Source of the DNA: an uncultured Thermoplasmatales archaeon
GTDB lineage: Archaea > Thermoplasmatota > E2 > UBA202 > DSCA01
Assembly: GCA_964414415.1 (NCBI GenBank)
Contig: CAYPWJ010000001.1
Location: 74,701 to 138,700, forward strand
Length of the DNA stretch: 64,000 nucleotides
Direction of reading: 5' to 3'
Made by a program: the position numbers and the translations under genes. Positions within the stretch are counted from its first letter, which is position 1; each line of letters opens with the position of its first letter. The notes beneath the pieces were generated by a model. The model saw nothing but the letters and a program-made list of their open reading frames with translations. It ran no database searches and was not told where the DNA came from. Shown here in pieces: positions 7,933 through 53,079 of this stretch.

Positions 7933-9258
7933 TTGACCATGGAATGGAGGTTGACGTCCCGGTCTCCACCAAAGGCATTGCTTGTCGTCGTCGTGGCAGC
8001 TCTGGGCCTCTACCTGATGTGGATATGGCGTCCACTGGGCCTGTTTCATTCCTGGAATGAGGCGTACTACATGATGCGCGTCGCACATATCGCTCGGGGT
8101 GGAAGCTATTTTGACTGGGGGTTTGACAATCCGCCATTGTTTGTATATGTGCTGACTGTGCTCTCCAGGCTACGTCTCAACCTGGTCTTTTTTCGGTTGT
8201 TCATCGTTTTCTGTACGCTCATCACCACCTGCGGGGTCTACGAATTGGGATCCGTCTTTGCAGATAAAAAAACAGGGATGGCGGCGGCTATCCTCTACGC
8301 GTTTTTTCCGTTGACCGTTGTATTCAGTAAAAAACTGCAGATTGACATGTTCGGCGTCATGTTGATGACGCTGTCTTTTTATTTTGCTGTCATAGGCGTA
8401 AAGCAAAAACGGTCATGGCTTCATCTCTCGGGCGTGTTGCTCGGCCTCGCCGTTCTAACGAAATTTCCATTTGGACTGGTGGCGATTCCCATCCTGTATT
8501 ACCTCTATAGAAAAGACGTCGGATGGAAACGGATTCTTTTCACGTTGTCCGAGGGCGCCCTCGTCGCGTCGCTGTGGGCCGGATACGTTGTGATGACACG
8601 CCCCTCGTTTTTCGACGAACGAGTCTCGTCGTCCTCCAATTTCTTTGGCTTCGGGGCCATGCACGCCGGGGCTCCTCTCTACCAGCTGGCGATGGTGGCG
8701 ACTGCAGTGCTGACGCTGGCATTGTTGCTTGCGCTGTTTTTTCGGAGGCAGCCGGCGAACGTCGAAGAGAGAACCCTCGGTGTGTTTTCCATCGTCTATG
8801 CGCTCTTTTTCATGGTGCTCCCTAACCATGAATACTACCTGCTGCCGCTGCTGGTGCCATTGTTCGTCTACGTGGCCCTGAAATGGCAGAGGGGGCAGTG
8901 GCGGAAGATAGCTATTGGTTTCCTGCTGGTTTCTCTTCTCCTGCTGGCCTGTCGGCCGGTCTACGAAGTAAACTGGCGGCGGACGACGAACTATATCGAA
9001 ACGAGATACGCTGCAGAAAACATAACGGTGTATGCCTCCAACCCCCGTGCGGCGGGATATTATCTCCATCGCAATGTCACGTTACTCACCTCTCGTGTGG
9101 ATGACGGTTTCCCGCCCAATGCCGTTGTAGCGTTCACCTGCTACGACGTCGCCAACCTGAAAGCTGTTCATCTCTGGGAACCCATCCAGGAGCAGCTGGT
9201 GCTGCTGAAGCAGTGGGACGACAAAATGTTCATCTATGGAGGCGAAGCGCTGCCATGA
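7933..9258 (+). CDS. Polytopic membrane glycosyltransferase, GT39/GT83 (PMT/ArnT-like) family
   Basis: 441 aa. About 11 predicted TM helices with a DxxE-like loop. Directly upstream of a Dpm1-like GT2 gene, the classic donor-synthase/transferase pair. Confidence 0.7.
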   Translation: MTMEWRLTSRSPPKALLVVVVAALGLYLMWIWRPLGLFHSWNEAYYMMRVAHIARGGSYFDWGFDNPPLFVYVLTVLSRLRLNLVFFRLFIVFCTLITTCGVYELGSVFADKKTGMAAAILYAFFPLTVVFSKKLQIDMFGVMLMTLSFYFAVIGVKQKRSWLHLSGVLLGLAVLTKFPFGLVAIPILYYLYRKDVGWKRILFTLSEGALVASLWAGYVVMTRPSFFDERVSSSSNFFGFGAMHAGAPLYQLAMVATAVLTLALLLALFFRRQPANVEERTLGVFSIVYALFFMVLPNHEYYLLPLLVPLFVYVALKWQRGQWRKIAIGFLLVSLLLLACRPVYEVNWRRTTNYIETRYAAENITVYASNPRAAGYYLHRNVTLLTSRVDDGFPPNAVVAFTCYDVANLKAVHLWEPIQEQLVLLKQWDDKMFIYGGEALP

Positions 9259-10340
9259 GTGTCTCCATCGTCATCCCAACGTTTAAAGAGCGGGGGAATC
9301 TGCCGGAGCTGTTCACCCGTATTTTCGCCGTTCTGGAGAGCGAGGGCATCGACGGCGAGGTCATCGTCGTTGACGACGACTCCCGGGATGGAACCGAAGG
9401 CTTTGTGCACAAATATGGCCGGGAGCGCCCCGTCGACGTCGTCGTCAGGAGAGACGAGAGAGGGCTGGCATCGGCCTGCGTCGAAGGCTTCCGGCATGCC
9501 AGCAACGACGTATTGCTGGTCATGGACGCCGACCTGCAGCATCCCCCGGAGAAGATACCCGCTCTGCTTGCGGCCATCGAGGCCGGTGCCGACATTGCGA
9601 TCGGCAGCAGATACGTGGAGGGAGGAAGCCTTGGCGACTGGGGCGTCGGCAGAAAACTGGTATCTAGGGCTGCCGCCTCCCTAGCGTCTCTCTTTTTTCA
9701 CACGGTCGCTGGCGTAAAGGACATTGAGTCAGGATTTTTTGCCTTCAAAAAAGACGTTATACAGGACGTCGACCTTCACCCGACGGGATACAAAATCCTG
9801 CTTGAGATTCTGGTGCTCGGCAGTTATACCGCTGTCGAAGAGATAGGATTCCGGTTTGGCGAACGAAAAAAAGGCGAGAGTAAACTCGGGCCGTCGGTCG
9901 TTGTTTCCTACCTTGCACATCTCTGGCATCTCCTCCGGGCATCCGGGCGGTTGACCCAGCTTATTTTATTTTGTCTGGTCGGCCTCGTCGGCGTCGGCGT
10001 CAACCTGGCCGTCCTGTATATCCTCACCGAGGCAGGGATGTATTACCTGCTGTCCGGGGCGGTCGCGATCGAGCTGTCGCTGCTGACCAATTTTGTCCTC
10101 AACCGCAGCTGGACCTTCAGAGACGAGGCACGACACGTGGGGCTGGCCAAGGCACTTGCCAAAGACCACGTCACCCGCTCGATAGGTATGGGGATAAATG
10201 TTGGCTGTCTCTACGTGCTGACGGAGTTCGCTGGACTGTTCTACATGCTCTCTATGCTGGTCGGCATCGGCCTTGCCACGCTGTGGAACTTCGTCGGCAA
10301 CGTCAGGTGGGTATGGACGCCGTCACGAGACGACGGATAA
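9255..10340 (+). CDS. Dolichyl-phosphate hexose synthase-like GT2 glycosyltransferase fused to a C-terminal GtrA-like 4-TM domain
   Basis: Start at MSVSIVIPTFKE (M15 of the track ORF). DxD region VIVVDDDSRDGT and the GT2 fold motifs. C-terminal GtrA-like helices. Confidence 0.8.
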   Translation: MSVSIVIPTFKERGNLPELFTRIFAVLESEGIDGEVIVVDDDSRDGTEGFVHKYGRERPVDVVVRRDERGLASACVEGFRHASNDVLLVMDADLQHPPEKIPALLAAIEAGADIAIGSRYVEGGSLGDWGVGRKLVSRAAASLASLFFHTVAGVKDIESGFFAFKKDVIQDVDLHPTGYKILLEILVLGSYTAVEEIGFRFGERKKGESKLGPSVVVSYLAHLWHLLRASGRLTQLILFCLVGLVGVGVNLAVLYILTEAGMYYLLSGAVAIELSLLTNFVLNRSWTFRDEARHVGLAKALAKDHVTRSIGMGINVGCLYVLTEFAGLFYMLSMLVGIGLATLWNFVGNVRWVWTPSRDDG

Positions 10341-10425
10341 GATACTCAGTTTCCCCTATTATGTTGGTCACGGCGGATGCCGTACCAACCTTTTTTAATT
10401 GCAGGGTGTTCATCCATGTGGCGCT

Positions 10426-12120
10426 ATGAAAAACCGCGAGATGGCCGAGATCCTGTACGAGATCGCCGAGCTGCTCGAGATGAAGGACGTCGACTTCAAG
10501 CCCCGCGCCTACCGCCGGGCGGCGCAGAACATCGAGTCACTCGGCACAGACATCGAGGAGCTCCACGCTGACGGGACGCTGCAGGACATCCCCGGCGTCG
10601 GGAAGAGCATCGCCGAAAAAATCGAGGAATACCTGGAGACCGGCTCCGTGGAGACACTGGAGCGGCTGCGAGAGGAGACCCCGGTGGACATCCAGGAGCT
10701 CTCCGCGGTCGAGGGCCTGGGCCCCAAGCGCATCGAGACGCTGTACCAGAAGCTGGGCGTTACGACGCTCGACGACCTCGAGGAAGCCGCCAAGCAGCAA
10801 AAGATCAGGGAGCTGGAGGGATTCGGCGCGAAAACCGAGCGGAACATCCTCGAGGGCATCGCCTTCGCCCGGGAGAGCCACGACCGTTTCCTGCTCGGCT
10901 TCGCGCTCCCCGAGGCTGACGACATCGTCGAGCAGCTTGAGCCACACGTCAGCCGGATAGCCGTGGCGGGATCGCTCCGCCGCAGGCGGGAGACCATCGG
11001 AGACGTCGACATCCTCGCCGTGACGGACGGCGACGCGATGGAGGTCTTCACCGGCATGGAGCACGTGGACCGGGTCCTGGTCAAGGGAGAGACCAAGACC
11101 TCGGTGCGCCTGCAGGGCGGCCTGCAGGTGGACCTGCGCATCGTCGACGCGGAGAGCTTCGGCTCCGCATTGCAGTACTTCACGGGCAGCCGGGACCACA
11201 ACATCGCGGTGCGGAAGCGCGCCATCCGACGGGGCTACAAGCTCAACGAGTACGGTCTCTTTGACGGCGACAAACGAGTGGCCGGTGAAACCGAGGAGGA
11301 CGTCTACAGGGCGCTCGACCTGGCCTGGATCCCTCCGGAGCTGCGGGAAAACCGCGGAGAGGTGGCGGCGGCCGAGGAGGGGACGCTGCCTGACCTCGTC
11401 GACCTCGACGACGTGAAGGGAGACCTGCAGATGCATACCACGTGGAGCGACGGCGCGAACTCTATAGATGAAATGGTGGAGGCAGCCCTGGAGCTCGGCC
11501 ATGACTACATCGCGATCACCGATCACGTCGGCTCGCTGCGGATCGCCGGCGGCCTCAACGCCGACGAGGTGGCGGAGCAGGCAGACGAAATCCAGGCGGC
11601 CCGCGACACCTATGACGGCATCCATATCTTCCACGGCGTCGAGGCGAACGTCATGAAGGACGGCAGCCTCGATGTCGGCGACGATATCTTCGAGCGGGTC
11701 GACCTCGTGCTGGCCGGCCTCCATTCGGCGTTTCGGATGGACGAGGCGGCGATGACCGAGCGACTCGTTGCAGCTGTCGAGCATCCCGCGGTGGACATCA
11801 TCCCGCATCCGACCTGCCGGCGTCTCCAGAAACGGGAGCCCATCGAGGTTGACCTCGGCCGGGTGCTGCAGGCCGCCGCTGACAGCGACGTCGCCATGGA
11901 GATCAACGCCTACCCGGAGCGCCTGGACCTCAACGACGCTCACGCCCGGCGGGCGAGAGATCTCGGTGTCACGCTGTCCATAGGCACCGACGCTCACCGC
12001 GCGGATCATCTCCGCTACTACGAGCTCGGTATCGCGGTTGCACGGCGCGGCTGGCTTGAAGAAGACGACGTGCTCAACACGCTGGATGCATCGACGCTGG
12101 AGAAGCGCTTTGCACGCTAG
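10426..12120 (+). CDS. polX: Family X DNA polymerase (PolX) with a C-terminal PHP phosphoesterase domain
   Basis: HhH motifs (GVGKSIAEKIEEY, GLGPKRIETLYQ). Pol beta-like nucleotidyltransferase (GSLRRRRETIGDVDIL). PHP domain (HTTWSDGANSIDEM...ITDH...GVEAN). TATA TTTTTTAATTG about 30 nt upstream. Confidence 0.85.
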   Translation: MKNREMAEILYEIAELLEMKDVDFKPRAYRRAAQNIESLGTDIEELHADGTLQDIPGVGKSIAEKIEEYLETGSVETLERLREETPVDIQELSAVEGLGPKRIETLYQKLGVTTLDDLEEAAKQQKIRELEGFGAKTERNILEGIAFARESHDRFLLGFALPEADDIVEQLEPHVSRIAVAGSLRRRRETIGDVDILAVTDGDAMEVFTGMEHVDRVLVKGETKTSVRLQGGLQVDLRIVDAESFGSALQYFTGSRDHNIAVRKRAIRRGYKLNEYGLFDGDKRVAGETEEDVYRALDLAWIPPELRENRGEVAAAEEGTLPDLVDLDDVKGDLQMHTTWSDGANSIDEMVEAALELGHDYIAITDHVGSLRIAGGLNADEVAEQADEIQAARDTYDGIHIFHGVEANVMKDGSLDVGDDIFERVDLVLAGLHSAFRMDEAAMTERLVAAVEHPAVDIIPHPTCRRLQKREPIEVDLGRVLQAAADSDVAMEINAYPERLDLNDAHARRARDLGVTLSIGTDAHRADHLRYYELGIAVARRGWLEEDDVLNTLDASTLEKRFAR

Positions 12121-12193
12121 CGATACATTGAGAGCCCGGCTTTTCTGGAGTGACTGGCATGTCGAGCCGTTCAGGGACGTAGAGCCGGAAAGG

Positions 12194-12205
12194 AAAATAT
12201 TATTA
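12194..12205 (+). promoter_or_regulatory. TATA box (AAAATATTATTA) about 29 nt upstream of tRNA-Asp
   Basis: Position relative to the tRNA 5' end at 12229. Confidence 0.4.
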
Positions 12206-12228
12206 ACGGGCATCCTATACCACTCTGA

Positions 12229-12353
12229 GCCCCGGTAGTGTAGTGGTTATCATGCGAGCCTGTCGAGGCCCCGCTGGGGCTGCAGCAAGCTCGCGACCCG
12301 AGTTCAAAGCCGTGTCGCGTCCTGCGGCATGGATGAAAATCTCGGCCGGGGCG
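12229..12353 (+). tRNA. tRNA-Asp (GUC) with two introns: a canonical 22-nt intron (12266-12287, between positions 37 and 38) and a 31-nt intron in the T-loop (12309-12339, between positions 59 and 60)
   Basis: Exons assemble into a 72-nt tRNA. Acceptor GCCCCGG/CCGGGGC. D arm GUGU-AGUGGUUA-UCAU, typical of archaeal tRNA-Asp. Anticodon stem CGAGC/GCUCG with loop CUGUCG|A. T arm CCGAG-UUCAAA|U-CUCGG. Discriminator G. Intron 1 forms a textbook hBHBh' motif: CUGU pairs with GCAG, the bulges are CG|A and CA|A, and the upper helix is GGCCCC/GGGGCU. Intron 2 has central helix UUCA/UGAA and 3' bulge AA|U, but a relaxed 5' side. Confidence 0.7.
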
Positions 12354-12435
12354 CTCCTTTCTTTTCCCCCGTGCCTGGTGCTTCCCGAAACTTACTTATA
12401 TGTAGCGAGGATAGTTCTCCCTGTCAGGTGACCGT

Positions 12436-14691
12436 ATGAAAGGAAAGCGGCATGTCATGCTTGTGTTTGGCCTCGTTTTTTTTATCGTTGCTCCCTCACT
12501 CGGGTTCGTGGTGACTCCGTCGATGAAGCGAGTGCCAGACGACCTGGACAAGACCATCCGCTATGAGGGTGACTTCGGTGTATTCAATACCTCGACGCTG
12601 CAGATGGATTACGTGGACGTGGAGATATGCCGGAACGTGACCGCGATTGAGGAACACGACGGTGTGCTGCTTCTCCGGGAGGATATATCAATTGTCAACA
12701 GCCGGACGGACGAGCAGATCCCGGAGCTGTCCGACACCAACATCTGGGCCATCGATCCCTACACCTCCAAAAACGTCAGGGGGTACGGTGACACGGAGCG
12801 CGTCGGCCAGTATATCTTCCCGATTGGCGTCGAGAAAAAACGGTATACCATCTGGAACGGCGACATGGACGGCCCCTACAGCGAGGGATACGTGGACGTT
12901 GAGGACGCGACGGGTGTCGCCCGCTACCAGGCCGAGGAGACGGTTGCCGGCACGACCTGCTACAAGTACCACGGCGGCCAGGAGGAAGTCTGGATCGGGC
13001 CGGGTCCGGAGGGCACCCCGCCGGGCACCGAGATGTATTACGAGGGCGAGCAGACCGCCTGGGTCGATCCCGAGACGGGCACCATCGTGGACTACGACAA
13101 ACACATCCGGCAGTACCTCGAGTTCCCCGACCTCAACCGGCTGCCGGCTGACCTGAACACGACAGCGCGGCTGAGCGGCACCATCGCCATGTTCAATCTC
13201 TCCAGCGCGGCATCCGACGATCCCTACGACCGGTGGAACGCTAGCGTCCGGCGGCACGTCTGGGTGGAGGAGGCATCCACCGACGAGATGTACATGGTCG
13301 GCAGCGAAACCATCGCACGAGACAGCGACGGCGATCTCCTCCCGGGTGACTTCCAGGCGTACAGCGTCGACGGCGTCAACCGGACCACGATGCACTATCA
13401 TCCACATTTCAGCGACAAGAGCGGCCGGCTGACGTTTCCCATCGGCGTCGAACAGCGCGACTACGAGCTGTGGAACAGCGACATCGGTGCCTCATCGACC
13501 GCCCGTTACACGGGGCAGACATCCATCGCCGGGCTGCCGGTCTACCGCTACCGGGTCTCGGTCGAGGAGCATCCACGCGGTACCATGTCGATCCCCGGGA
13601 TGAGCGACCGCCACGTCGACCTCTCATACAGCGGCGACACGGTCTACTACGTGGAGCCCGCCACCGGCAGCGTCGTCAACGTCGAAAAGACAGGCGTCGT
13701 CGAGGCGACGTTTCCCGACCTGCATACCATCCCAGAGAACACCCATACAGAGCTCGAGATGAACGGCGACCTCTGGATCCTCGGGCAGGGGCGCACCGAC
13801 ATCCGGATGCATCGGGAGGTCACGGCGACCGACACCCACTACGATGAAGGACGCAAGGTCATCCTGCTGCGCGACAACACGACGGTCTACGATCAGGCAA
13901 GCGGCGAGGTCGTCGAGATGGCGTCCGGCAGCGCGGTGCACGGCGTCTACGCAGAGACGGCCAGAGAGGCCCCGAACTACGGCGACCGCCACCGGGAGGG
14001 CGTCTTTACGTTTCCACCAGGCGTGGACAAGCAGACCTACCAGATGTGGAACACCGAGATCGCTGCGACGTCACCCGCCCGCTTCGTCCGTGAGGAAGAC
14101 CACGCCGGCATCCACACATATCTGTTCGAGACGGAGGAAAGCCGGCAGGTCTACGACCCCACAGAGGGCATCGAGCAGGAGGTCAAATATACGACGACGA
14201 CGCGGTACTGGGTGGAGCCCAACAGCGGCATGGTCATCGACATGGAAAAGACCTCGGAGAAAAAAGTCAATCTCCTCAACTACCTCGTCGGCATCCCGGG
14301 CCGGACCTGGGTGAAGGCCTACGAGCTCACGCTGTCGTTTTCCGACGGCACCGTCGCCAAAAACGTCCGGGCAGGACGGACGGCGGCAGCCCAGATGCAG
14401 CTCTCCGGCAGCACGATGCCGGTCACCACGGTGAATCTCTCAACCGCGGGGTTGATGGACAGCGTCAGGGCGGCACGGCAGCAAAAACAGCAGGTGCAGC
14501 AGCTCGACGAAAACAAGGTCAAAGCCGTGGATTTCCACTACTGGATGAGCCATGCGTCGGTGGAGCAGATGGCGGACGAAGCGCAGACAACCGGCTTCAT
14601 GCTCATGCTGCTCCAGGTCATCCTGCCCGTCCTCCTCGTGATTTTCGGTGTTGCCCTCGCTGTGCTCTGGTGGGTCAACCGGCCCGAGTAG
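12436..14691 (+). CDS. Membrane-anchored surface protein made of three tandem roughly 230-aa domains (DUF3068-like), with signal peptide and C-terminal TM helix
   Basis: Three copies of the block FPIGVEKKRYTIWN / FPIGVEQRDYELWN / FPPGVDKQTYQMWN, each followed by a Y..Y...E hallmark. N-terminal hydrophobic signal. C-terminal LMLLQVILPVLLVIFGVALAVLWWV anchor. Confidence 0.6.
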   Translation: MKGKRHVMLVFGLVFFIVAPSLGFVVTPSMKRVPDDLDKTIRYEGDFGVFNTSTLQMDYVDVEICRNVTAIEEHDGVLLLREDISIVNSRTDEQIPELSDTNIWAIDPYTSKNVRGYGDTERVGQYIFPIGVEKKRYTIWNGDMDGPYSEGYVDVEDATGVARYQAEETVAGTTCYKYHGGQEEVWIGPGPEGTPPGTEMYYEGEQTAWVDPETGTIVDYDKHIRQYLEFPDLNRLPADLNTTARLSGTIAMFNLSSAASDDPYDRWNASVRRHVWVEEASTDEMYMVGSETIARDSDGDLLPGDFQAYSVDGVNRTTMHYHPHFSDKSGRLTFPIGVEQRDYELWNSDIGASSTARYTGQTSIAGLPVYRYRVSVEEHPRGTMSIPGMSDRHVDLSYSGDTVYYVEPATGSVVNVEKTGVVEATFPDLHTIPENTHTELEMNGDLWILGQGRTDIRMHREVTATDTHYDEGRKVILLRDNTTVYDQASGEVVEMASGSAVHGVYAETAREAPNYGDRHREGVFTFPPGVDKQTYQMWNTEIAATSPARFVREEDHAGIHTYLFETEESRQVYDPTEGIEQEVKYTTTTRYWVEPNSGMVIDMEKTSEKKVNLLNYLVGIPGRTWVKAYELTLSFSDGTVAKNVRAGRTAAAQMQLSGSTMPVTTVNLSTAGLMDSVRAARQQKQQVQQLDENKVKAVDFHYWMSHASVEQMADEAQTTGFMLMLLQVILPVLLVIFGVALAVLWWVNRPE

Positions 14692-26024: not shown

Positions 26025-26079
26025 GACCGTTCATCCCCAGGGCGCTATAAGTGCTTTGTGGGATTTTTGTGGAAATAAT

Positions 26080-26132
26080 TTAACGCTACATTTTCACATT
26101 TTTTTTCTGTTTCCGGCAAAATGTAGCGGTAA
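26080..26132. repeat. 15-bp inverted repeat TTAACGCTACATTTT / AAAATGTAGCGgTAA (1 mismatch) separated by 23 nt. A third copy, TTTTGTAGCGTTAAG, lies at 26245-26259.
   Basis: Direct observation at the left edge of low-GC islet 2, immediately downstream of the RM gene. Confidence 0.5.
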
Positions 26133-26295
26133 CCATCACAAACGGCAAAAACAGCGATGCTCCTCATGACAGCGCCCCTTTTTCGAGACAAAACACCCCG
26201 ATATTTTTAGTTCTACATTTAACTATAAAAACCATATTTTACTATTTTGTAGCGTTAAGTACGGAGGGAAGGAAGGCGGCGATTATTCCGGCGCT

Positions 26296-29200
26296 TCAAA
26301 ACCTGTCGAGGAAGGTGTCGATGACGGCGATGTCGTCCTCGCTTTCTATGTTGTAGAGGTCGAACACCGTCTGGTTGAGTTTGTCTTCCAGTTCTGCAAC
26401 TGTCGGCATGTCTCTGAGTTTCCCGATGTCTTGGTCGTGCATCTCTAAAATCTGCTGTACCAACTCATTGTTCACTGGCACTCGGATGATTATCTCTTCT
26501 TCCTTCGACAGTTTTTTCCCGTTGAGCGTCCGGGCAATGTATTCATATTTTTCGTCCGTGTTGATACGGTAGTCGTCGATGTAGTCGTCTTTTCCCAGCT
26601 TTATTTTCTTTCCTTCATCGAGGCCGGTCTGGATGGATATGGATGCCTCGCGGTAATAACGCTTTGTTGTATGCCGTATCTCGAAGAATTCGTCCACTAC
26701 ATCTTTTTTCCGTAGCGCTGAGAAGTACGGTGTGGGAAACATGTCGATTTTGCGTTTCAACTCCTCGATGCCGACTATCTGTTCTGCCACTTCTTTAATC
26801 TCTTCTAGGAAATCGAGTTCCCCATCTTTTTCTGCTGTTTTGATTGGCAGGAGCTTGATATAGGCGTCTGCGTAGGAATACGACTTCCCCGCATAGATGG
26901 TGCTTATGTGCTTTAGATAAAAGTCTAGCAAACTCGAATTCAACAGGCCAGTTAAGTAAAATGGAAATTGCTTCTCAGATTTTAGCAGAATCCCATAAAT
27001 TCCTCCGCCCTTTCCTCCGCCCTGAAACACATACTTTGCCTCATTGTCGTAGCAGTAATCACCTTCCTGAGAATTGAGTTGAACAAGTATTTTCTTTTTG
27101 TCATATTTGTCCTTGCTTCGGGGGTACCCCATCCCGTACCATTTATGCTCTTGGTTTTTCCCTCTCCTGAATTTGCCGCCCTCGCGGCTTCTCAAATCAT
27201 CTTCTATGCTCTCAAGATAACTCCACCCCTTCGGATACAAGTCCTCGATATAGGTGTCGCCGTAGTCAAACTTGCCCTCATATTCCTTGGATGGAATCAG
27301 CTTGTATTTCTCCTCGCCGTCGATTACATACTGTTGATAGGGGAAGAGCACATACCACCCCTTCCAGTCAATACGCCAGCGTTCGACATCCTTGCCGAAA
27401 AGAAAAGGCCGTACCAGCCCTTTCTCCACCTCAACGGGGTCGCCACCGCCCTTTGGCCGGGCGACAATAGTGTCTTCCCTCTCTTCTATCAGTTGTAGCA
27501 CATAGAAGTCATCTTTGCTAGTTGAAACCCCTTGAAATCCTCCGCTTTTAGTTTTGGTGAAATCCTGTAAAAGACTGCATCCCTCTTCTATCTGGCTGAA
27601 AACCTTCCATTCATTTGGGGGCATCAGGTACCAGCCCTGGGCGCGGAGGTTGTCGTACGGGAAATAAAACGCATCCGAGAAGTCGCCGACGACGTGGCTG
27701 TCCCCGTTTTCCAATTGTTCAAAGCAATGTTCGACATCTGCTAGCAGCTCTTCCCCATCATCACTGTCCCTGAATACACGTGCAACCGGAAAGCGGTGCT
27801 GCCGTCGTGGTCCCTTCGAAAACACGAAAATCGCCGGGTAATTCAAGGCGTCCTCGAACACGCGGCTGTCCTTCATGTCCAGCAGCTTGTCTATCTGCGC
27901 CTGCTCGGGCAGCCCGGCACGCATCGGCTTGCCATAGTTGGTGAGCAAAAACCGGTTCGAGACGATGTAGCTCAGTTTCCCCGCATGGCCGCCCTTTATC
28001 CACTTCAATCCTCGCTCGATAAACGGAACAAAGATGTCATAGTTACCCTTTGCCCAGTCATAGCAGCCCGACCATCTATTCTTCTGTTTCTCCGGTATAT
28101 CCTGAATCCGAACGTAGGGAGGATTACCAACCACGAAGTCGTAGTCAACAAAGTTTTTCAACAACGCTGCCAGCAGCACATCCTCAATCGACTTCACCAG
28201 CCGTCCGTCCTCAAAGTCACTTTTCAGAAGTTTTATCTTCTCCAACAGGTCATAGGCGTAGTCCTCGAAAAACTCGGCCAGCAGGCTCCATTTCTTGTCC
28301 ACGAGGTAATGACGCAGGTTTCTTTCAAGTCGGTCAAGGTTCACCGACTCTCGCTCCTCAACTGCGTCACGTTTCACAGTGTCAAATACCGCCTGCAGCG
28401 CACCGAAGTATTCCTCTGTCCGCTGGATATCTGTATGTTCACGGACGGTTATGATGTCAGGGATACGGAAGTCATCTTCGAAAAACGTTCCCTCGTCGCC
28501 CTGCACCGGCAGTTCGATGGACATGGTAAACGTCTTCCCGACGCCAAAGTCAGTTATCTTCATCCGCCCGCTCTGCTGTTCCATCGCTAGGGAATCCGTC
28601 CGAAAGATCGGCAGCCGCTTTAACACAAAGCCCGGGTCTTCTTCCTTCGCCTTCCGATAGGTTGGGAGCAACGCGAGCGTGAACTGCACCTGCGCCATGA
28701 TGGTGGCAAACGGGTGGATGTCAAAGCCGACGATGTGATACCGGTTGCATAGCTCGTCAAGCACCTTCCCCCATCCATGCTGTTCTGCCTTACGCTTTGC
28801 ACCGTCCAGATACCGTTTCAACGCCTCGACGAGAAACGTACCTGAGCCGCAGGCGGGATCCAGCAGCCGTCTGTCGACCGTCTGCTCGCCGGTGTAGCCG
28901 ACGGAATCCAAGATATAGTCAACTACTTCCATCGGTGTATAGAATTCACCGAGCGCCTTCCTCGTCTCAGTATCGAAATAACGCTGGTAGAGGATACCCA
29001 GCGGGTCGCCCTCGACGCGCGAGAAATCAAACTTGTAGATGGCGAGCAGCAGCTTCGCAACGTTTTTTCCAAATGTCGACATCTGCAGAGTGGTATCGCT
29101 AAAGAACTGCTGGTAGCTACGCCGGTCAAATTCCTCTGTCCACCAGTAAAAAATATCCTCCTCGAACACAGACGCAATGAGCTTCTCTTGCATATCTCTG

Positions 29201-30174
29201 ATGATCTGAGTAGCGATTTTCGGATAAGACGACTGAGCGATATCTACATCCGACCGAGAGGCGCGGCGCACCTCATTCTCAAGCAAATCAGAGAAATGAG
29301 CGTCAGGGAAACCGTAGTCCTCGCATGACTTCGTCAGGATAAGCCGCATAAAAAGAGCGAATGCTGTCTCCAGAGCAAACGTCATCAGGTATCTGTCCTC
29401 CTTTTTTCCGGGGGACAGCCCGGCTTTCTCAAAAACATGCGCCCAGTGATCCGGCACCTGGCTCTTTGTCAGCGACTTTGCATAGGAGCGCTTCCAGAAC
29501 TCGTAGGCGCTTTTGGTAAAACGCGAGGTTTCCCTGCTCTGCTCAAACAGATTTATGATCGAGGAGACAAGCTCGGAAAACAGAGAGTCCTCCTTGAGCC
29601 TGAAGCTTTCATAAAAATGCCCTCGAGATGTTTCTGTATCAAGCGATAGCCGTTCCTCGGCGGGCTTGAACTTGTCGATATACGTCAGCACATTGTCAAT
29701 TTTGGTCGTGCCGTAGTCAGGCTTCGAGAGCAGCCGTATGCCCTCACTTACCATCTCTTCGTCTATCTCCGACATGCCTCCGGAGATGTCGTTTCTCCGC
29801 AAAAGCCGCTTCTGCTGCCGTTCATAGAAAATAAGCTCCCGTCCATTGTAGAGAAGACCATAGTCTGCCTTTAGCTCATCGACATATTTTTCCTTCAGAT
29901 CATCTTCAAAATACCCGAGGTCGTCCACTCCTGGCTTTTTAAATTCGATGACAAAGACGATATCTCCAAACTCGTCGGTGCAATGGATATCGGTCCGCTT
30001 GCCTGTTGCGATGCGTTCCTCAAAGAAGATGTCGTTTTTCTCATATCCAAGATTTTCCAGGATTTCTTTTTTAGAAAATTTTATCCGAAGTGTTTCCTCG
30101 TTCATCTCCGGGTTATCCTCCACCTCCTGCCATAAATCACGTAACGCTTCAAATATGTCACCTACCTTTGACAT
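26296..30174 (-). CDS. Type IIG (Eco57I/MmeI-like) single-chain restriction-modification enzyme: N-terminal PD-(D/E)xK nuclease, gamma-class N6-adenine methyltransferase, C-terminal target-recognition domain
   Basis: 1292 aa. Nuclease motif D...FVIEFKK. MTase motif X GEFYTP, motif I LDPACGSGTFLV, motif IV VVGNPPYV. TRD with the LLNSSLLDFYL signature. By eye about 46% GC. Confidence 0.8.
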   Translation of the reverse strand: MSKVGDIFEALRDLWQEVEDNPEMNEETLRIKFSKKEILENLGYEKNDIFFEERIATGKRTDIHCTDEFGDIVFVIEFKKPGVDDLGYFEDDLKEKYVDELKADYGLLYNGRELIFYERQQKRLLRRNDISGGMSEIDEEMVSEGIRLLSKPDYGTTKIDNVLTYIDKFKPAEERLSLDTETSRGHFYESFRLKEDSLFSELVSSIINLFEQSRETSRFTKSAYEFWKRSYAKSLTKSQVPDHWAHVFEKAGLSPGKKEDRYLMTFALETAFALFMRLILTKSCEDYGFPDAHFSDLLENEVRRASRSDVDIAQSSYPKIATQIIRDMQEKLIASVFEEDIFYWWTEEFDRRSYQQFFSDTTLQMSTFGKNVAKLLLAIYKFDFSRVEGDPLGILYQRYFDTETRKALGEFYTPMEVVDYILDSVGYTGEQTVDRRLLDPACGSGTFLVEALKRYLDGAKRKAEQHGWGKVLDELCNRYHIVGFDIHPFATIMAQVQFTLALLPTYRKAKEEDPGFVLKRLPIFRTDSLAMEQQSGRMKITDFGVGKTFTMSIELPVQGDEGTFFEDDFRIPDIITVREHTDIQRTEEYFGALQAVFDTVKRDAVEERESVNLDRLERNLRHYLVDKKWSLLAEFFEDYAYDLLEKIKLLKSDFEDGRLVKSIEDVLLAALLKNFVDYDFVVGNPPYVRIQDIPEKQKNRWSGCYDWAKGNYDIFVPFIERGLKWIKGGHAGKLSYIVSNRFLLTNYGKPMRAGLPEQAQIDKLLDMKDSRVFEDALNYPAIFVFSKGPRRQHRFPVARVFRDSDDGEELLADVEHCFEQLENGDSHVVGDFSDAFYFPYDNLRAQGWYLMPPNEWKVFSQIEEGCSLLQDFTKTKSGGFQGVSTSKDDFYVLQLIEEREDTIVARPKGGGDPVEVEKGLVRPFLFGKDVERWRIDWKGWYVLFPYQQYVIDGEEKYKLIPSKEYEGKFDYGDTYIEDLYPKGWSYLESIEDDLRSREGGKFRRGKNQEHKWYGMGYPRSKDKYDKKKILVQLNSQEGDYCYDNEAKYVFQGGGKGGGIYGILLKSEKQFPFYLTGLLNSSLLDFYLKHISTIYAGKSYSYADAYIKLLPIKTAEKDGELDFLEEIKEVAEQIVGIEELKRKIDMFPTPYFSALRKKDVVDEFFEIRHTTKRYYREASISIQTGLDEGKKIKLGKDDYIDDYRINTDEKYEYIARTLNGKKLSKEEEIIIRVPVNNELVQQILEMHDQDIGKLRDMPTVAELEDKLNQTVFDLYNIESEDDIAVIDTFLDRF

Positions 30175-30175
30175 G

Positions 30176-30838
30176 CTATTCCTCTATTTTCTCAAAGGAA
30201 TCCACGGTGAAATTTTCCCCGAAATCGGCTCCGTTGAACCGATATTTGTTACCGGCCAGTTTTACGTCGAGAAGACAGTCGAGGTCCTCGTCGTCCATCT
30301 CCTTCGCCATCTCCAAATCTATATCGGTTAATCTTTCAGCTACCTCGCCATTTGCCACCATCACCTTGCTGGTGGAATCAAGAGCAACCTTTATCCGGAA
30401 ATCCTCGACCGGCTCCACGTCCAGATGGACGGGACAGTGGTCGTTCACTAAGACCCGGTTGCATTCGGGGCATCGCTCGATATAGCCGCTCTTCGGCACA
30501 ATCCTCGTAACGTGCCCCTCTATCCCACCGTTGTCTCCAGCCTCTATCTCTTCATCCAGCTTTGTTATCTTTGTTCGAGAGTTAAGATTGACTTGAGACT
30601 GTTCATTCCATACATCCACCACGACGCCCTTGAAAAGATAGCTTTCTCCTTCTTGGAGCTCCGGCAACTGTGATTTTTTCCATGAGACAAACTTGAGTTT
30701 ACCGGTCTCATCGCCGAGCAACCCCACCTGGGCGATAGCATCCGAGCGTGGCTCCCAAAGCTGGAGAACCTTCGCTTTTAGAGACACCCATTCCCCTTCC
30801 TCTGTTAATTCTTCGATTTTTCGCATCTCCGCTGACAT
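30176..30838 (-). CDS. RPA-like single-stranded-DNA-binding protein: one OB fold plus a CxxC...CxxH zinc ribbon and an acidic tail
   Basis: 220 aa. OB-fold hallmark VSLKAKVLQLWEP...GLLGDETGKLKFVSWKK...GESYLFKGVVVDVWN. Zinc ribbon CPECNRVLVNDHCPVH. The stop codon is 1 nt from the RM gene start, indicating an operon. A/T-ending codon usage as in the RM gene. Confidence 0.65.
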   Translation of the reverse strand: MSAEMRKIEELTEEGEWVSLKAKVLQLWEPRSDAIAQVGLLGDETGKLKFVSWKKSQLPELQEGESYLFKGVVVDVWNEQSQVNLNSRTKITKLDEEIEAGDNGGIEGHVTRIVPKSGYIERCPECNRVLVNDHCPVHLDVEPVEDFRIKVALDSTSKVMVANGEVAERLTDIDLEMAKEMDDEDLDCLLDVKLAGNKYRFNGADFGENFTVDSFEKIEE

Positions 30839-30928
30839 ACCTATTTTCCCCTATCCAATTCTACAAATGCCGAGGCAATAATAAATTTTGCTTTCGATGC
30901 AGCATCTTCTAGAAACTTCCAAAATGTG

Positions 30929-34155: not shown

Positions 34156-34863
34156 CTAAGGAGTATGCTTTCGTTCATGCTTTGTGTACCTTATCAGTAG
34201 CTCGTTTATCAATTTTTCAGCATCTCTGATTTCTTTCCAATGTGCCCCTCGTAAGGCCTTTGAGACTGCCTGTTGCGTAATATGTTGTTTTTGTGCGACT
34301 GCCTTCTGTTTGCCCAGCTTCTCGTAGCTGTCTATGATGTCCTTTTTTCCCTTCCAGTGACTATATTTTATGATAGCCGTTAAATTTGCGATAGTGGTGA
34401 TTTCCCTGTCTAATGATTTTTGTCCCAAATCAAAATAAAAATAATCGAACGGCTTTTTTGTGTTCCGTACCGTCTGTCTGGCCTTCGTTTTTAATTTTTC
34501 CAGATAGCTATCGGCCCGTTTAAATGCTACTCCATCTATTTGGGATGCATTTCTGGTCTCCAAAGCGACATCCAGCTTCCCAAAAACAGCCGCAAATCTA
34601 ATTTTAAAGGGAAGCATATGCTCCTGGATTTCTCTCATTACATCATACGTGGTTTCGATGTTCTTTAGAACACCTGCTATCTCATCGCCTTTGACCACCA
34701 TACATTTTGCAAATAATTTATCCTCAAATTTTTTGTTCGTTGCTTCTACTGAATGGGCAAGTTTTCTTCCATATCTGTTCCGATTCTTTATTTTTGCTGA
34801 TCCTATGACGTCTCCGACAATCGTCACGAATTTTTTATCCATATTTTTTGTTAATTGCATCAT
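34156..34863 (-). CDS. SatD-like protein with a C-terminal sigma-70-region-4-type helix-turn-helix
   Basis: 235 aa, lysine-rich. N-terminal VTIVGDVIGSAKI motif. C-terminal ITQQAVSKALRGAHWKEIRD HTH. By eye about 35% GC. Confidence 0.5.
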   Translation of the reverse strand: MMQLTKNMDKKFVTIVGDVIGSAKIKNRNRYGRKLAHSVEATNKKFEDKLFAKCMVVKGDEIAGVLKNIETTYDVMREIQEHMLPFKIRFAAVFGKLDVALETRNASQIDGVAFKRADSYLEKLKTKARQTVRNTKKPFDYFYFDLGQKSLDREITTIANLTAIIKYSHWKGKKDIIDSYEKLGKQKAVAQKQHITQQAVSKALRGAHWKEIRDAEKLINELLIRYTKHERKHTP

Positions 34864-51567: not shown

Positions 51568-53079
51568 ATGGACAAAGTCGTGGCAGCGGTAGGTGTGGCA
51601 CTCCTCGTGTCCTCTGGCGTTTCGATGGCTGTTCAAAATGCTGACGGAGGTGATGGCTGCTGGGAGAGGCGATACGACGGCATGGGAAACGGGGCGGCCG
51701 CCGACATTGTCCCTGCACATGACGGCGGATTTGCCGTTGTTGGGTCTACAGCGTCGACGGTGGATGGCCAGCGGGATATGTGGCTCTTGAAGCTTGATTC
51801 CCAAGGGAACAGGGAATGGGAACGATTTTACGGCGGAGCGCAGAGCGAGCGGGCCTGGAGCCTGGTACGGACAGATGACGGATACCTGCTCGGAGGCTAC
51901 GTTGAAACCTCAGGATTGAAGGGCGAGGAGTTCTGGCTGATACGGGTAGGCGAGCACGGCCACATGATATGGAACAGGACGTATGGCGGGGGCGGAGACC
52001 AAAAACTGGATGCAGTCATCACCACGGCTGATGGTGGATACGCTGCGGCGGGGAGAACAAGTTCCGCCGATAATCCTGGAGACGTGTGGCTTCTGAAGAT
52101 AGACGGAGCGGGCAACGTCGCATGGACCCGCAGCTATGGGGGAGCCGAGATGGATGTCGGCACAGACATCGTTGCAACATCCGATGGATACCTCATTGGC
52201 GGGAGGACCGACTCCTACGCTTCACATGGGGGGTGGGATAGCTGGCTGATCAAGACAGACGGGCAGGGACATGAAGAATGGAACAGAACGTATGGCTGGA
52301 ACAAATTGGAGTTTTGTACCTATATCGAAGAAACACCGGACGGCTACGTTCTGGCCGGCTACACCGAGACCGCCGACAGATGGGGCGAAGCCTATCTGAT
52401 AAAAGTAACAAGGCAGGGAGAGGAACAGTGGAAACGCCGCTACGGCGGATGGAGCATGGACCAGATAGATGATTTCAAGGCGATAGAAGATGGCTATATA
52501 TTGGCAGGAGGTACAGACAGCTATGGATTAGGCGACTTTGACGCATGGCTGCTAAAAATTGATACAGATGGAACCGAGCTATGGAACAAGAGTTTCGGAC
52601 AACGAGAAGCAGATTGGGCACACGCGGTATTGCCGGTAGATAGTGGTTATCTCTGGGTTGGCCATTCCAACGTCTACCATCCGCTCCGCAGAGAACGTGA
52701 AACAGACGCATGGATAGTGAAATGCGATGACGCTCCGCCGCCAACACTTGCCATCTCCCGGCCGAAAGACGGGCATCTGTATCTCTTCGACATGGAAATA
52801 ATGCCCTACGAGCAGACGATCGCGATAGGCGGGATCACGGTAACCGCCGAAACAGGTAGCCCCGGCCGGATAGACAGGGTAGCATTCTACGTGACTGGCT
52901 ACGACATCTACGAGCATCGTCCTCGCGCTGTTATCTCCGAGCCGCCATACCAGTGGAAATGCCGCAGGCTGGGGATGGGGCAACCCATCCAGATAATAGC
53001 TGGCGGATACTACGGCCAGGCTGGAGGCGTAGCGGTGGACAAACAGGAGATACGCATCTTCAACATGGTTCCGGGATAG
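51568..53079 (+). CDS. Secreted beta-propeller repeat protein (about 7 blades of about 48 aa; SBBP/PQQ-like repeat) with a C-terminal Ig-like domain
   Basis: Signal peptide, then repeats of consensus DGGY...AG.T.S...G..D.WL.K.D..G...W...YGG. TATA CCTTTAAAAGT about 30 nt upstream. Confidence 0.65.
   Translation: MDKVVAAVGVALLVSSGVSMAVQNADGGDGCWERRYDGMGNGAAADIVPAHDGGFAVVGSTASTVDGQRDMWLLKLDSQGNREWERFYGGAQSERAWSLVRTDDGYLLGGYVETSGLKGEEFWLIRVGEHGHMIWNRTYGGGGDQKLDAVITTADGGYAAAGRTSSADNPGDVWLLKIDGAGNVAWTRSYGGAEMDVGTDIVATSDGYLIGGRTDSYASHGGWDSWLIKTDGQGHEEWNRTYGWNKLEFCTYIEETPDGYVLAGYTETADRWGEAYLIKVTRQGEEQWKRRYGGWSMDQIDDFKAIEDGYILAGGTDSYGLGDFDAWLLKIDTDGTELWNKSFGQREADWAHAVLPVDSGYLWVGHSNVYHPLRRERETDAWIVKCDDAPPPTLAISRPKDGHLYLFDMEIMPYEQTIAIGGITVTAETGSPGRIDRVAFYVTGYDIYEHRPRAVISEPPYQWKCRRLGMGQPIQIIAGGYYGQAGGVAVDKQEIRIFNMVPG

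Follow-up and report, generated by a model that had tools for sequence, protein, structure and literature searches.

Type IIG restriction-modification enzymes are usually treated as self-sufficient, and to our knowledge enzymes of this class are single polypeptides which have no dedicated accessory protein. Canonical archaeal Rpa1-like proteins of the replication protein A (RPA) type act together with an RPA2-like protein, RPAP, which is encoded next door (PMC3376784, PMC8329085). The present analysis concerns a 64,000-nucleotide stretch of DNA (called here the window) from an uncultured Thermoplasmatales archaeon, GenBank assembly GCA_964414415.1, contig CAYPWJ010000001.1, positions 74,701 to 138,700, in which a gene for a short RPA-like protein stands directly in front of a gene for a Type IIG enzyme. 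The name RPAL is given here to the family of short RPA-like proteins (214-239 amino acids) which includes the product of the window gene. RPAL is a horizontally moving, co-inherited partner of the enzyme, distinct from canonical RPAs and able to coexist with them, and it can be said with high confidence that it belongs to a conserved two-gene module. Type IIG systems themselves are known; what is new here is the RPA-derived accessory gene that accompanies one of them. Full-text literature searches and recent surveys of BREX and of archaeal immunity yielded no description of an RPA or OB-fold partner of a Type IIG enzyme. The two genes of the window are as follows.

30176..30838, minus strand: RPAL gene, an OB fold followed by a DBD-C-like zinc OB, 220 amino acids (NF005553, AlphaFold2, Foldseek).
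26296..30174, minus strand: Type IIG restriction-modification enzyme, 1292 amino acids (Pfam HSDR_N_2, N6_Mtase, Eco57I and TaqI_C; PADLOC REase_MTase_IIG, 7e-53).

About 30 RPAL proteins (50-95% identity) are present in a collection of 5.8 billion proteins, mostly in metagenome-assembled genomes (MAGs) of Thermoplasmatota, and with RPAL-specific peptide patterns relatives were confirmed in only about 6 of 185,579 species-representative genomes. Of 21 independent loci, about 15 have an orthologous Type IIG gene immediately downstream of RPAL, a count which includes two loci with a broken or stub enzyme and four with a short, zinc-only form of RPAL. Thermoplasmata and Nanohaloarchaeota are both represented among the linked loci (individual loci are given below as L numbers), as are unbinned metagenome contigs, and the neighbourhoods of these loci are unrelated. 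Full-length RPAL is paired with the enzyme in the window/L001, L002/3, L004/5/11, L007/8/10, L022, L026, L039, L044 and L045/46. Spacing between the genes is tight in linked loci, where they either overlap by 8 nt or stand 1-6 nt apart (14 nt in L030); in the window the RPAL stop and the ATG of the enzyme are 1 nt apart (TAG-C-ATG), and the two genes are apparently translationally coupled. The Type IIG gene of L006 is frameshifted (10668-14545) into at least three open reading frames (ORFs) of 157, 155 and 711 amino acids beside an intact RPAL, and in L042/43 it has shrunk to a stub of 42 amino acids. A short form of 119-155 amino acids, which consists of the zinc domain only, directly precedes the Type IIG gene in L016 (7935-8345, a Nanohaloarchaeota MAG), L030 (552-1019), L033 (468-872) and L047 (4638-4997), where the enzyme orthologues show 46-54% identity. 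A zinc-domain-only cluster representative of 122 amino acids (P0394) exists too.

Identities of RPAL and enzyme to the window pair drop in step across the linked loci (82/89, 56/68, 55/63, 54/61, 51/50 and 37/41%). In a neighbour-joining tree the RPAL clade is monophyletic and stands apart from haloarchaeal RPA3; members linked to Type IIG are found in every sub-branch, including the deepest, and the unlinked members are scattered tips, from which it follows that the linkage is ancestral and the orphans are secondary. The linkage is thus conserved and co-diverging, with secondary losses. Sampling from the enzyme side gave the same picture: the two homologues looked up at 41% and 52% identity each have RPAL or its short form upstream (hidden Markov model E = 2e-61 and 1e-41), whereas RPAL is missing from all five that were looked up at 31-34% identity, of which three are on haloarchaeal plasmids and two in IMG/VR. 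An earlier note on this DNA, made from the letters alone, had tied the small gene to the enzyme as its operon partner, and the recurrence of the pair upholds that tie, the mechanism being a matter of interpretation. Neighbourhoods of linked loci often hold integrases, a group II intron reverse transcriptase, toxins, ParE, AbiE (AbiEii) and Hachiman HamA with a helicase. No third gene beyond RPAL and the enzyme is common to the gene tables of the loci; an all-against-all ORF comparison lends this weak support, its listed matches being mostly shadow frames of the two genes. Directly downstream of the most divergent module lies a Hachiman-like pair, HamA and a DEAD-box helicase (L045, 6628-10046), which is consistent with a defence island. 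An integrase gene and a DUF4062/NACHT gene lie upstream of the broken module of L006.

The RPAL gene of the window is a minus-strand ORF at 30176..30838 with an ATG start, and all the peptides quoted in the earlier note are present in its 220-amino-acid product. The following parts can be distinguished in it.

30557..30790, minus strand: N-terminal OB fold (OB1), residues 17-94, a predicted barrel for single-stranded DNA (ssDNA) binding (2kbn, SsoSSB, Foldseek 2ken, aromatic residues).
30185..30523, minus strand: DBD-C-like OB domain, residues 106-218, with a three-helix insert (AlphaFold2 secondary structure, P. abyssi RPA1 profile match).
30425..30472, minus strand: zinc ribbon CPECNRVLVNDHCPVH, C123/C126/C135/H138, invariant in both alignments.

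The earlier description of this product as an RPA-like protein with one OB fold and a zinc ribbon holds except for its count of OB folds. Profiles, solved structures and a confident AlphaFold2 model all mark the protein as RPA-like. The best NCBIfam model is NF005553 'replication factor A' (E = 4e-64; the 311-amino-acid haloarchaeal Rpa3 type), of which positions 70-295 of 311 are covered with a score of 216.8 bits, below the curated cutoff of 353. When a profile of 69 relatives was compared with the PDB, its N-terminal half matched the OB domain of M. mazei MM0293 (2kbn, 7e-40) and Sulfolobus SSB (1o7i, 7e-8), and its C-terminal half matched P. abyssi RPA1 (8c5y/8aaj, 5e-6 to 2e-5). The AlphaFold2 model (mean predicted local distance difference test score, pLDDT, of 87.5) comprises two barrels, and its top Foldseek matches are 2ken, P. 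abyssi RPA1 and fungal and human RPA70, with a template modelling (TM) score against 2ken of 0.86 normalised to the target and a root-mean-square deviation of 1.7 A; the OB fold proposed earlier is therefore backed by both profile and structure prediction. The second barrel (residues 106-218) runs in the order beta1, zinc ribbon, beta2, beta3, three helices, beta4 and beta5. This is the DBD-C architecture described by MacNeill for archaeal Rpa1-like proteins (PMC8329085), so that the protein is to be called an OB followed by a DBD-C-like OB; the ribbon does not stand next to a single OB fold but inside a second one. The zinc ligands C123, C126, C135 and H138 (CX2CX8CX2H) do not vary among 27 members of the family, nor in a set of 69 sequences which includes haloarchaeal RPAs. 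Five aromatic residues of OB1 (W17, F50, W53, Y67 and W77) are invariant across all full-length members. Two of these, W53 and W77, pair in the HMMER alignment with W56 and F79 of Sulfolobus SSB, which we take to be ssDNA-stacking residues; binding of ssDNA by OB1 is likely.

The two-domain core, an OB followed by a DBD-C-like zinc OB, is shared with the Rpa3-type RPAs (PRK07217/NF005553; Hfx. volcanii Rpa3 with Rpap3; MM0293), and RPAL shows 44-46% identity to 309-amino-acid haloarchaeal Rpa3-type proteins and 51% to the MM0293 OB domain. In contrast to these, RPAL lacks both termini, and the place of the downstream RPAP gene is occupied by the Type IIG gene. All 40 complete Rpa3-type relatives of 308-324 amino acids (40/40) have an N-terminal extension of 63-79 and a C-terminal tail of 14-21 amino acids, whereas no RPAL has the tail or the N-terminal domain and a few have 3-20 extra N-terminal residues. 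Canonical RPA followed by RPAP (COG3390) was found in the Thermoplasmata loci L009, L015, L017, L018, L028, L029, L031, L032, L034 and L035, as well as on pNG200. RPAP adjoins every canonical Thermoplasmata RPA locus recovered, and no RPAP gene stands next to any RPAL. The topology of the C-terminal fold, in which the zinc ribbon interrupts the OB and a three-helix insert lies between beta3 and beta4, is common to RPAL, the DBD-C of eukaryotic RPA70 and P. abyssi RPA1 (4gop, 8aaj, 8c5y). Unlike the latter two, RPAL stops at beta5 and so has no C-terminal helix for the trimerisation bundle; it has one further OB fold only, and RPA32-like and RPA14-like partners are absent. Plasmid RPA genes of haloarchaea (Haloarcula marismortui pNG200) are of the RPA3 type and travel on mobile replicons, but unlike RPAL they are full-length (about 309 amino acids), have RPAP directly downstream and show no link to a restriction enzyme. 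RPA3-type genes are present in 163 haloarchaeal plasmid records, and on the 33-kb pNG200 (L048, 3778-5451) the RPAP partner directly follows; plasmid-borne RPA-RPAP pairs seem to be common in haloarchaea.

RPAL might also be regarded as a host accessory repair RPA, an equivalent of Rpa3, which hitch-hikes passively near a restriction gene in a variable region. Its closest characterised relatives are indeed the haloarchaeal Rpa3-type proteins, and Rpa3 of Hfx. volcanii acts in DNA repair (PMC3376784). Moreover, in the Thermoplasmatales archaeon SpSt-1185 (L009, 1776-3828, the same as L023; L024, 4608-6660) RPAL has a host-like GC content of 0.63 and lies, with no Type IIG gene, divergently to an adjoining canonical operon for a 439-amino-acid RPA1 and a 274-amino-acid RPAP; this copy may have been domesticated. 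A linkage that is conserved in unrelated neighbourhoods down to 37%/41% identity nevertheless largely refutes passive hitch-hiking. The genes of the pair also co-diverge, overlap in reading frame and have a foreign composition common to both, RPAL has neither the RPAP partner nor the termini that define Rpa3, and the family is extremely sporadic. A repair function of this kind is thus considered very unlikely. Beside the L009 locus, a low-GC gene for an N4/N6 methylase lies 1.6 kb further on.

Within the window, RPAL and the Type IIG gene form a single island of about 4.9 kb with a GC content of 0.45-0.52 against a background of 0.63; the names in the eIF-1A protein cluster likewise place the host among the Thermoplasmatota. 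GC content at third codon positions (GC3) is 0.59 in RPAL and 0.62 in the Type IIG gene, compared with 0.76-0.92 in host genes (n = 29). The codon adaptation index (CAI), with the other genes of the window as reference, is 0.441 for RPAL (z = -3.0; only one of the 35 genes scores lower) and 0.496 for the Type IIG gene (z = -2.3). Both measures confirm the foreign codon usage which the earlier note had read from the sequence. Atypical codon usage is not unique to RPAL, being similar in a gene of no known kind at 51568-53079, in two glycosyltransferase genes and in a SatD-family gene. The intergenic regions on either side of the two genes are as follows.

30839..30928, minus strand: upstream intergenic region with a TATA-like A/T-rich box TTTATTAT at 30878-30885, about 44 nt 5' of the ATG (sequence read).
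26025..26295, minus strand: AT-rich intergenic DNA at the 3' edge of the island; an inverted repeat of 15 nt lies at 26080-26132.

The A/T-rich box is a putative promoter of the operon. No direct repeats were found to flank the island and no operator-like repeats were found in the upstream region of RPAL; tRNA genes are absent from the whole 64-kb window, and the two island genes and the neighbouring genes scanned gave no match to an integrase family. Scans with sigma-70 and terminator models gave hits at shuffle level only, such models being not applicable to archaea.

It could be supposed that this archaeon depends on RPAL as its replicative ssDNA-binding protein, as the 64-kb window, part of a contig of 204,934 bp, holds no second RPA, RPAP or SSB and the OB and zinc domains look intact. 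Its codon usage, however, is foreign, and a protein confirmed in about 6 of 185,579 representative genomes cannot be the essential RPA of a lineage. Related Thermoplasmata carry canonical operons of multi-OB RPA and RPAP, one of them having both kinds of protein, and RPAL itself is frameshifted in L027 and truncated in the short forms. This supposition is regarded as extremely improbable, and it is highly probable that RPAL is not the replicative RPA of its host. The view of the earlier note that the gene is element-borne and not the replicative RPA accordingly gains in strength from the island of low GC and CAI, the recurrence of the pair in unrelated neighbourhoods, the rarity of the RPAL family and the coexistence of a distinct RPA-RPAP type. 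The comparison with phage or plasmid SSBs drawn there is valid in a generic sense only. No relative of RPAL was found in IMG/VR contigs, in 50,697 phage records (tblastn) or in PHROGs, and BFVD returned only generic tandem-OB matches such as LEF-3. An assignment to a bacterial or phage SSB or to a viral ssDNA-binding family was rejected on account of the missing matches in PHROGs, phage records and IMG/VR.

The partner gene encodes one polypeptide which joins a PD-(D/E)xK nuclease, a gamma-class N6-adenine methyltransferase and a specificity domain, as in the single-chain Type IIG enzymes of the Eco57I / MmeI-like kind, of which it has the full architecture, the intact motifs and the variable specificity domain. 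Its domains are listed below.

29809..30099, minus strand: PD-(D/E)xK nuclease domain, residues 26-122, D62...E77-x-K79 (HSDR_N_2 match, alignment of homologues).
27856..28983, minus strand: N6-adenine methyltransferase domain, motif I DPACGSG and motif IV NPPY (Pfam N6_Mtase, Eco57I).
26842..27408, minus strand: TaqI_C-type target-recognition domain (Pfam TaqI_C, 6.9e-10), within the region where the enzyme is least conserved.

All of 26 homologues share D62, E77 and K79 as well as D439-G445 (DPACGSG) and N684-P686, and Y687 is kept in at least 90%. Mean identity over residues 801-1050 is mostly 0.25-0.31, against 0.66-0.77 at the methyltransferase motifs, and the target-recognition region has been replaced in L044. 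The enzyme looks active, since no homologue departs from the catalytic and S-adenosylmethionine-binding motifs although the specificity region varies; to judge from the alignment, the pattern looks like that of a working restriction system which diversifies its targets. What sets it apart from its stand-alone relatives at 31-34% identity is the RPA-derived partner gene, carried by the clade of at least 41% identity. Pfam gave no match on the three unassigned segments of the enzyme and BLASTP found no RPAP-like or RPA-like sequence inside it. An AlphaFold2 single-sequence model of its C-terminal 293 amino acids, in which a docking or OB domain was sought, had a pLDDT of 32 and was unusable. BREX/Pgl was rejected as an identity, with 73.5 bits for the best PglX model against a cutoff of 400 and no PglZ, BrxC or BrxL neighbours in the gene tables. 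The longest of the 120 best enzyme homologues (P0191, 1413 amino acids, 37% identity) has an extra C-terminal region, DUF433 by JGI naming, and apparently arose by fusion to a small domain resembling an antitoxin. On a Halobaculum plasmid (L051, 9014-14014) a stand-alone homologue at 31% identity abuts genes on the opposite strand for a UvrD-like helicase and a PD-(D/E)xK nuclease, possibly a different partnership of the same enzyme family.

The explanation that is considered reasonably probable as a whole is that RPAL serves as an accessory subunit of a mobile Type IIG restriction module. RPAL would be a stripped-down descendant of a euryarchaeal RPA of the Rpa1/Rpa3 type, which has kept the ssDNA-binding OB and the zinc DBD-C-like OB and has lost the N-terminal domain of about 65 amino acids, the C-terminal tail and the RPAP partner gene. 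In a defence module of two genes which moves horizontally, its gene would come first and that of the single-chain Type IIG enzyme second, and RPAL, being made in step with the enzyme, would serve it as an accessory subunit that binds nucleic acid. The zinc-bearing DBD-C-like domain is proposed as the partnering part because it is the sole part kept in every variant; it may cooperate with the enzyme by touching it directly or by acting on shared DNA. For a physical complex of the two proteins the chances appear evenly balanced. OB1 would add ssDNA binding and could in this way tether or gate the enzyme at ssDNA or at junctions of ssDNA and double-stranded DNA, whether these are replication intermediates of incoming viruses and plasmids or the host's own forks. 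The effect might be activation or targeting, directed at replicating invaders and at ssDNA or rolling-circle elements, or else restraint and fork-directed methylation, which would serve self-protection. Any such specific targeting or gating role is put forward with considerable doubt. A little less doubtful, and still only tentative, is the broader idea that a restriction enzyme has gained a subunit for sensing or gating by recruitment of a eukaryote-like RPA module, the OB of which reads ssDNA while its zinc domain couples this to the nuclease-methyltransferase.

Several observations weigh against an accessory subunit of this kind. Enzyme relatives at 31-34% identity have equal length and architecture and manage without a partner, which means that RPAL is not intrinsically required for this enzyme type. 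RPAL is intact in L009/24, L013, L037 and L040 in the absence of a Type IIG gene, and the short contigs L025 and L027 also lack the enzyme gene, RPAL being frameshifted in the latter; such orphans, for example that of L009 with its host-like GC, may have a function of their own. No fusion of RPAL with the enzyme was found among the 150 best profile-search matches or the 120 best enzyme homologues. The short forms, finally, lack the ssDNA-binding OB, so that ssDNA binding is not a universal essential activity of the family. The orphan of L040 is situated inside an SNF2/SWIM/PemK island. That of L013 adjoins a cluster (8164-11513) which, judged by eye from translations only, is CRISPR-Cas-like, with a putative Csa3-like regulator, a Cas6-like protein of 250 amino acids and a 604-amino-acid ORF resembling a large subunit.

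Some of the same facts can be read in favour of RPAL as a safety or control factor, which either restrains the nuclease in the manner of an antitoxin or regulates the operon as C proteins do. Here RPAL would bind the mRNA or the enzyme, with the result that methylation precedes cleavage on entry to a new host. The gene is placed as a controller gene would be, ahead of the enzyme gene and closely coupled to it; orphan RPALs outlive an enzyme that is lost or truncated (the stub of L042, L040, L037, L013), and no orphan enzyme was seen in the clade of at least 41% identity, an asymmetry which is expected of a protective component. The short forms, moreover, show that the ssDNA-binding OB is dispensable. 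This asymmetry is, however, a weak one, as sampling was mostly from the RPAL side and two loci only came from the enzyme side. A fused restriction-modification polypeptide has less need of temporal control, RPAL has no helix-turn-helix (HTH) and no operator-like repeat precedes it, and the strict conservation of the ssDNA-contact aromatics of OB1 in full-length members argues for a role in DNA binding. Control of this sort is judged unlikely. As an identity in the strict sense, the restriction-modification controller (C) protein was rejected, since RPAL matches no HTH family, has no upstream repeat and shares with such proteins only its position upstream of a nuclease gene.

In one clade of an enzyme class held to be self-sufficient, a dedicated RPA-derived partner has been retained through deep divergence, in pairs with as little as about 37-41% identity and in Thermoplasmata as well as Nanohaloarchaeota. 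Such retention points to an unrecognised requirement, for example recognition of ssDNA, targeting to forks or restraint of the nuclease, and a requirement of this kind bears on how self-cleavage is avoided and how replicating invaders are detected. RPAL also represents an exaptation of the archaeal and eukaryotic RPA core, including the poorly understood DBD-C domain; since the short forms keep nothing else, they indicate that the DBD-C-like domain is the functional minimum. If RPAL is indeed a sensing or gating subunit, the decision between self and non-self hangs on the strandedness of DNA together with its methylation, and a restriction-modification system in which this decision depends on strandedness would be the first known to us. 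For annotation practice, genes for 220-amino-acid 'replication factor A' proteins of the RPAL type should not be counted as replication machinery. Catalogues of defence systems, in turn, miss the partner gene, PADLOC having no model that matches RPAL.

A few other genes of the window deserve mention. A second islet, more foreign in composition than the first, consists of the SatD-family gene (34156-34863, minus strand, 235 amino acids, PF16264 at 4.7e-17), which has a GC content of 0.39, a GC3 of 0.40, a CAI z-score of -3.8 and a weak PADLOC match to RmrT (0.0037). Its distance from the island of RPAL and the Type IIG gene is 3.3 kb, and L001 keeps this arrangement. Genes for a PMT_2 mannosyltransferase and a GT2/GtrA glycosyltransferase (7933-10340, plus strand) have a GC3 of 0.66-0.69, and an ORF of 503 amino acids which has no Pfam match (51568-53079, plus strand) has a GC3 of 0.60 and a CAI of 0.451; all three are probably variable genes or additional acquisitions.

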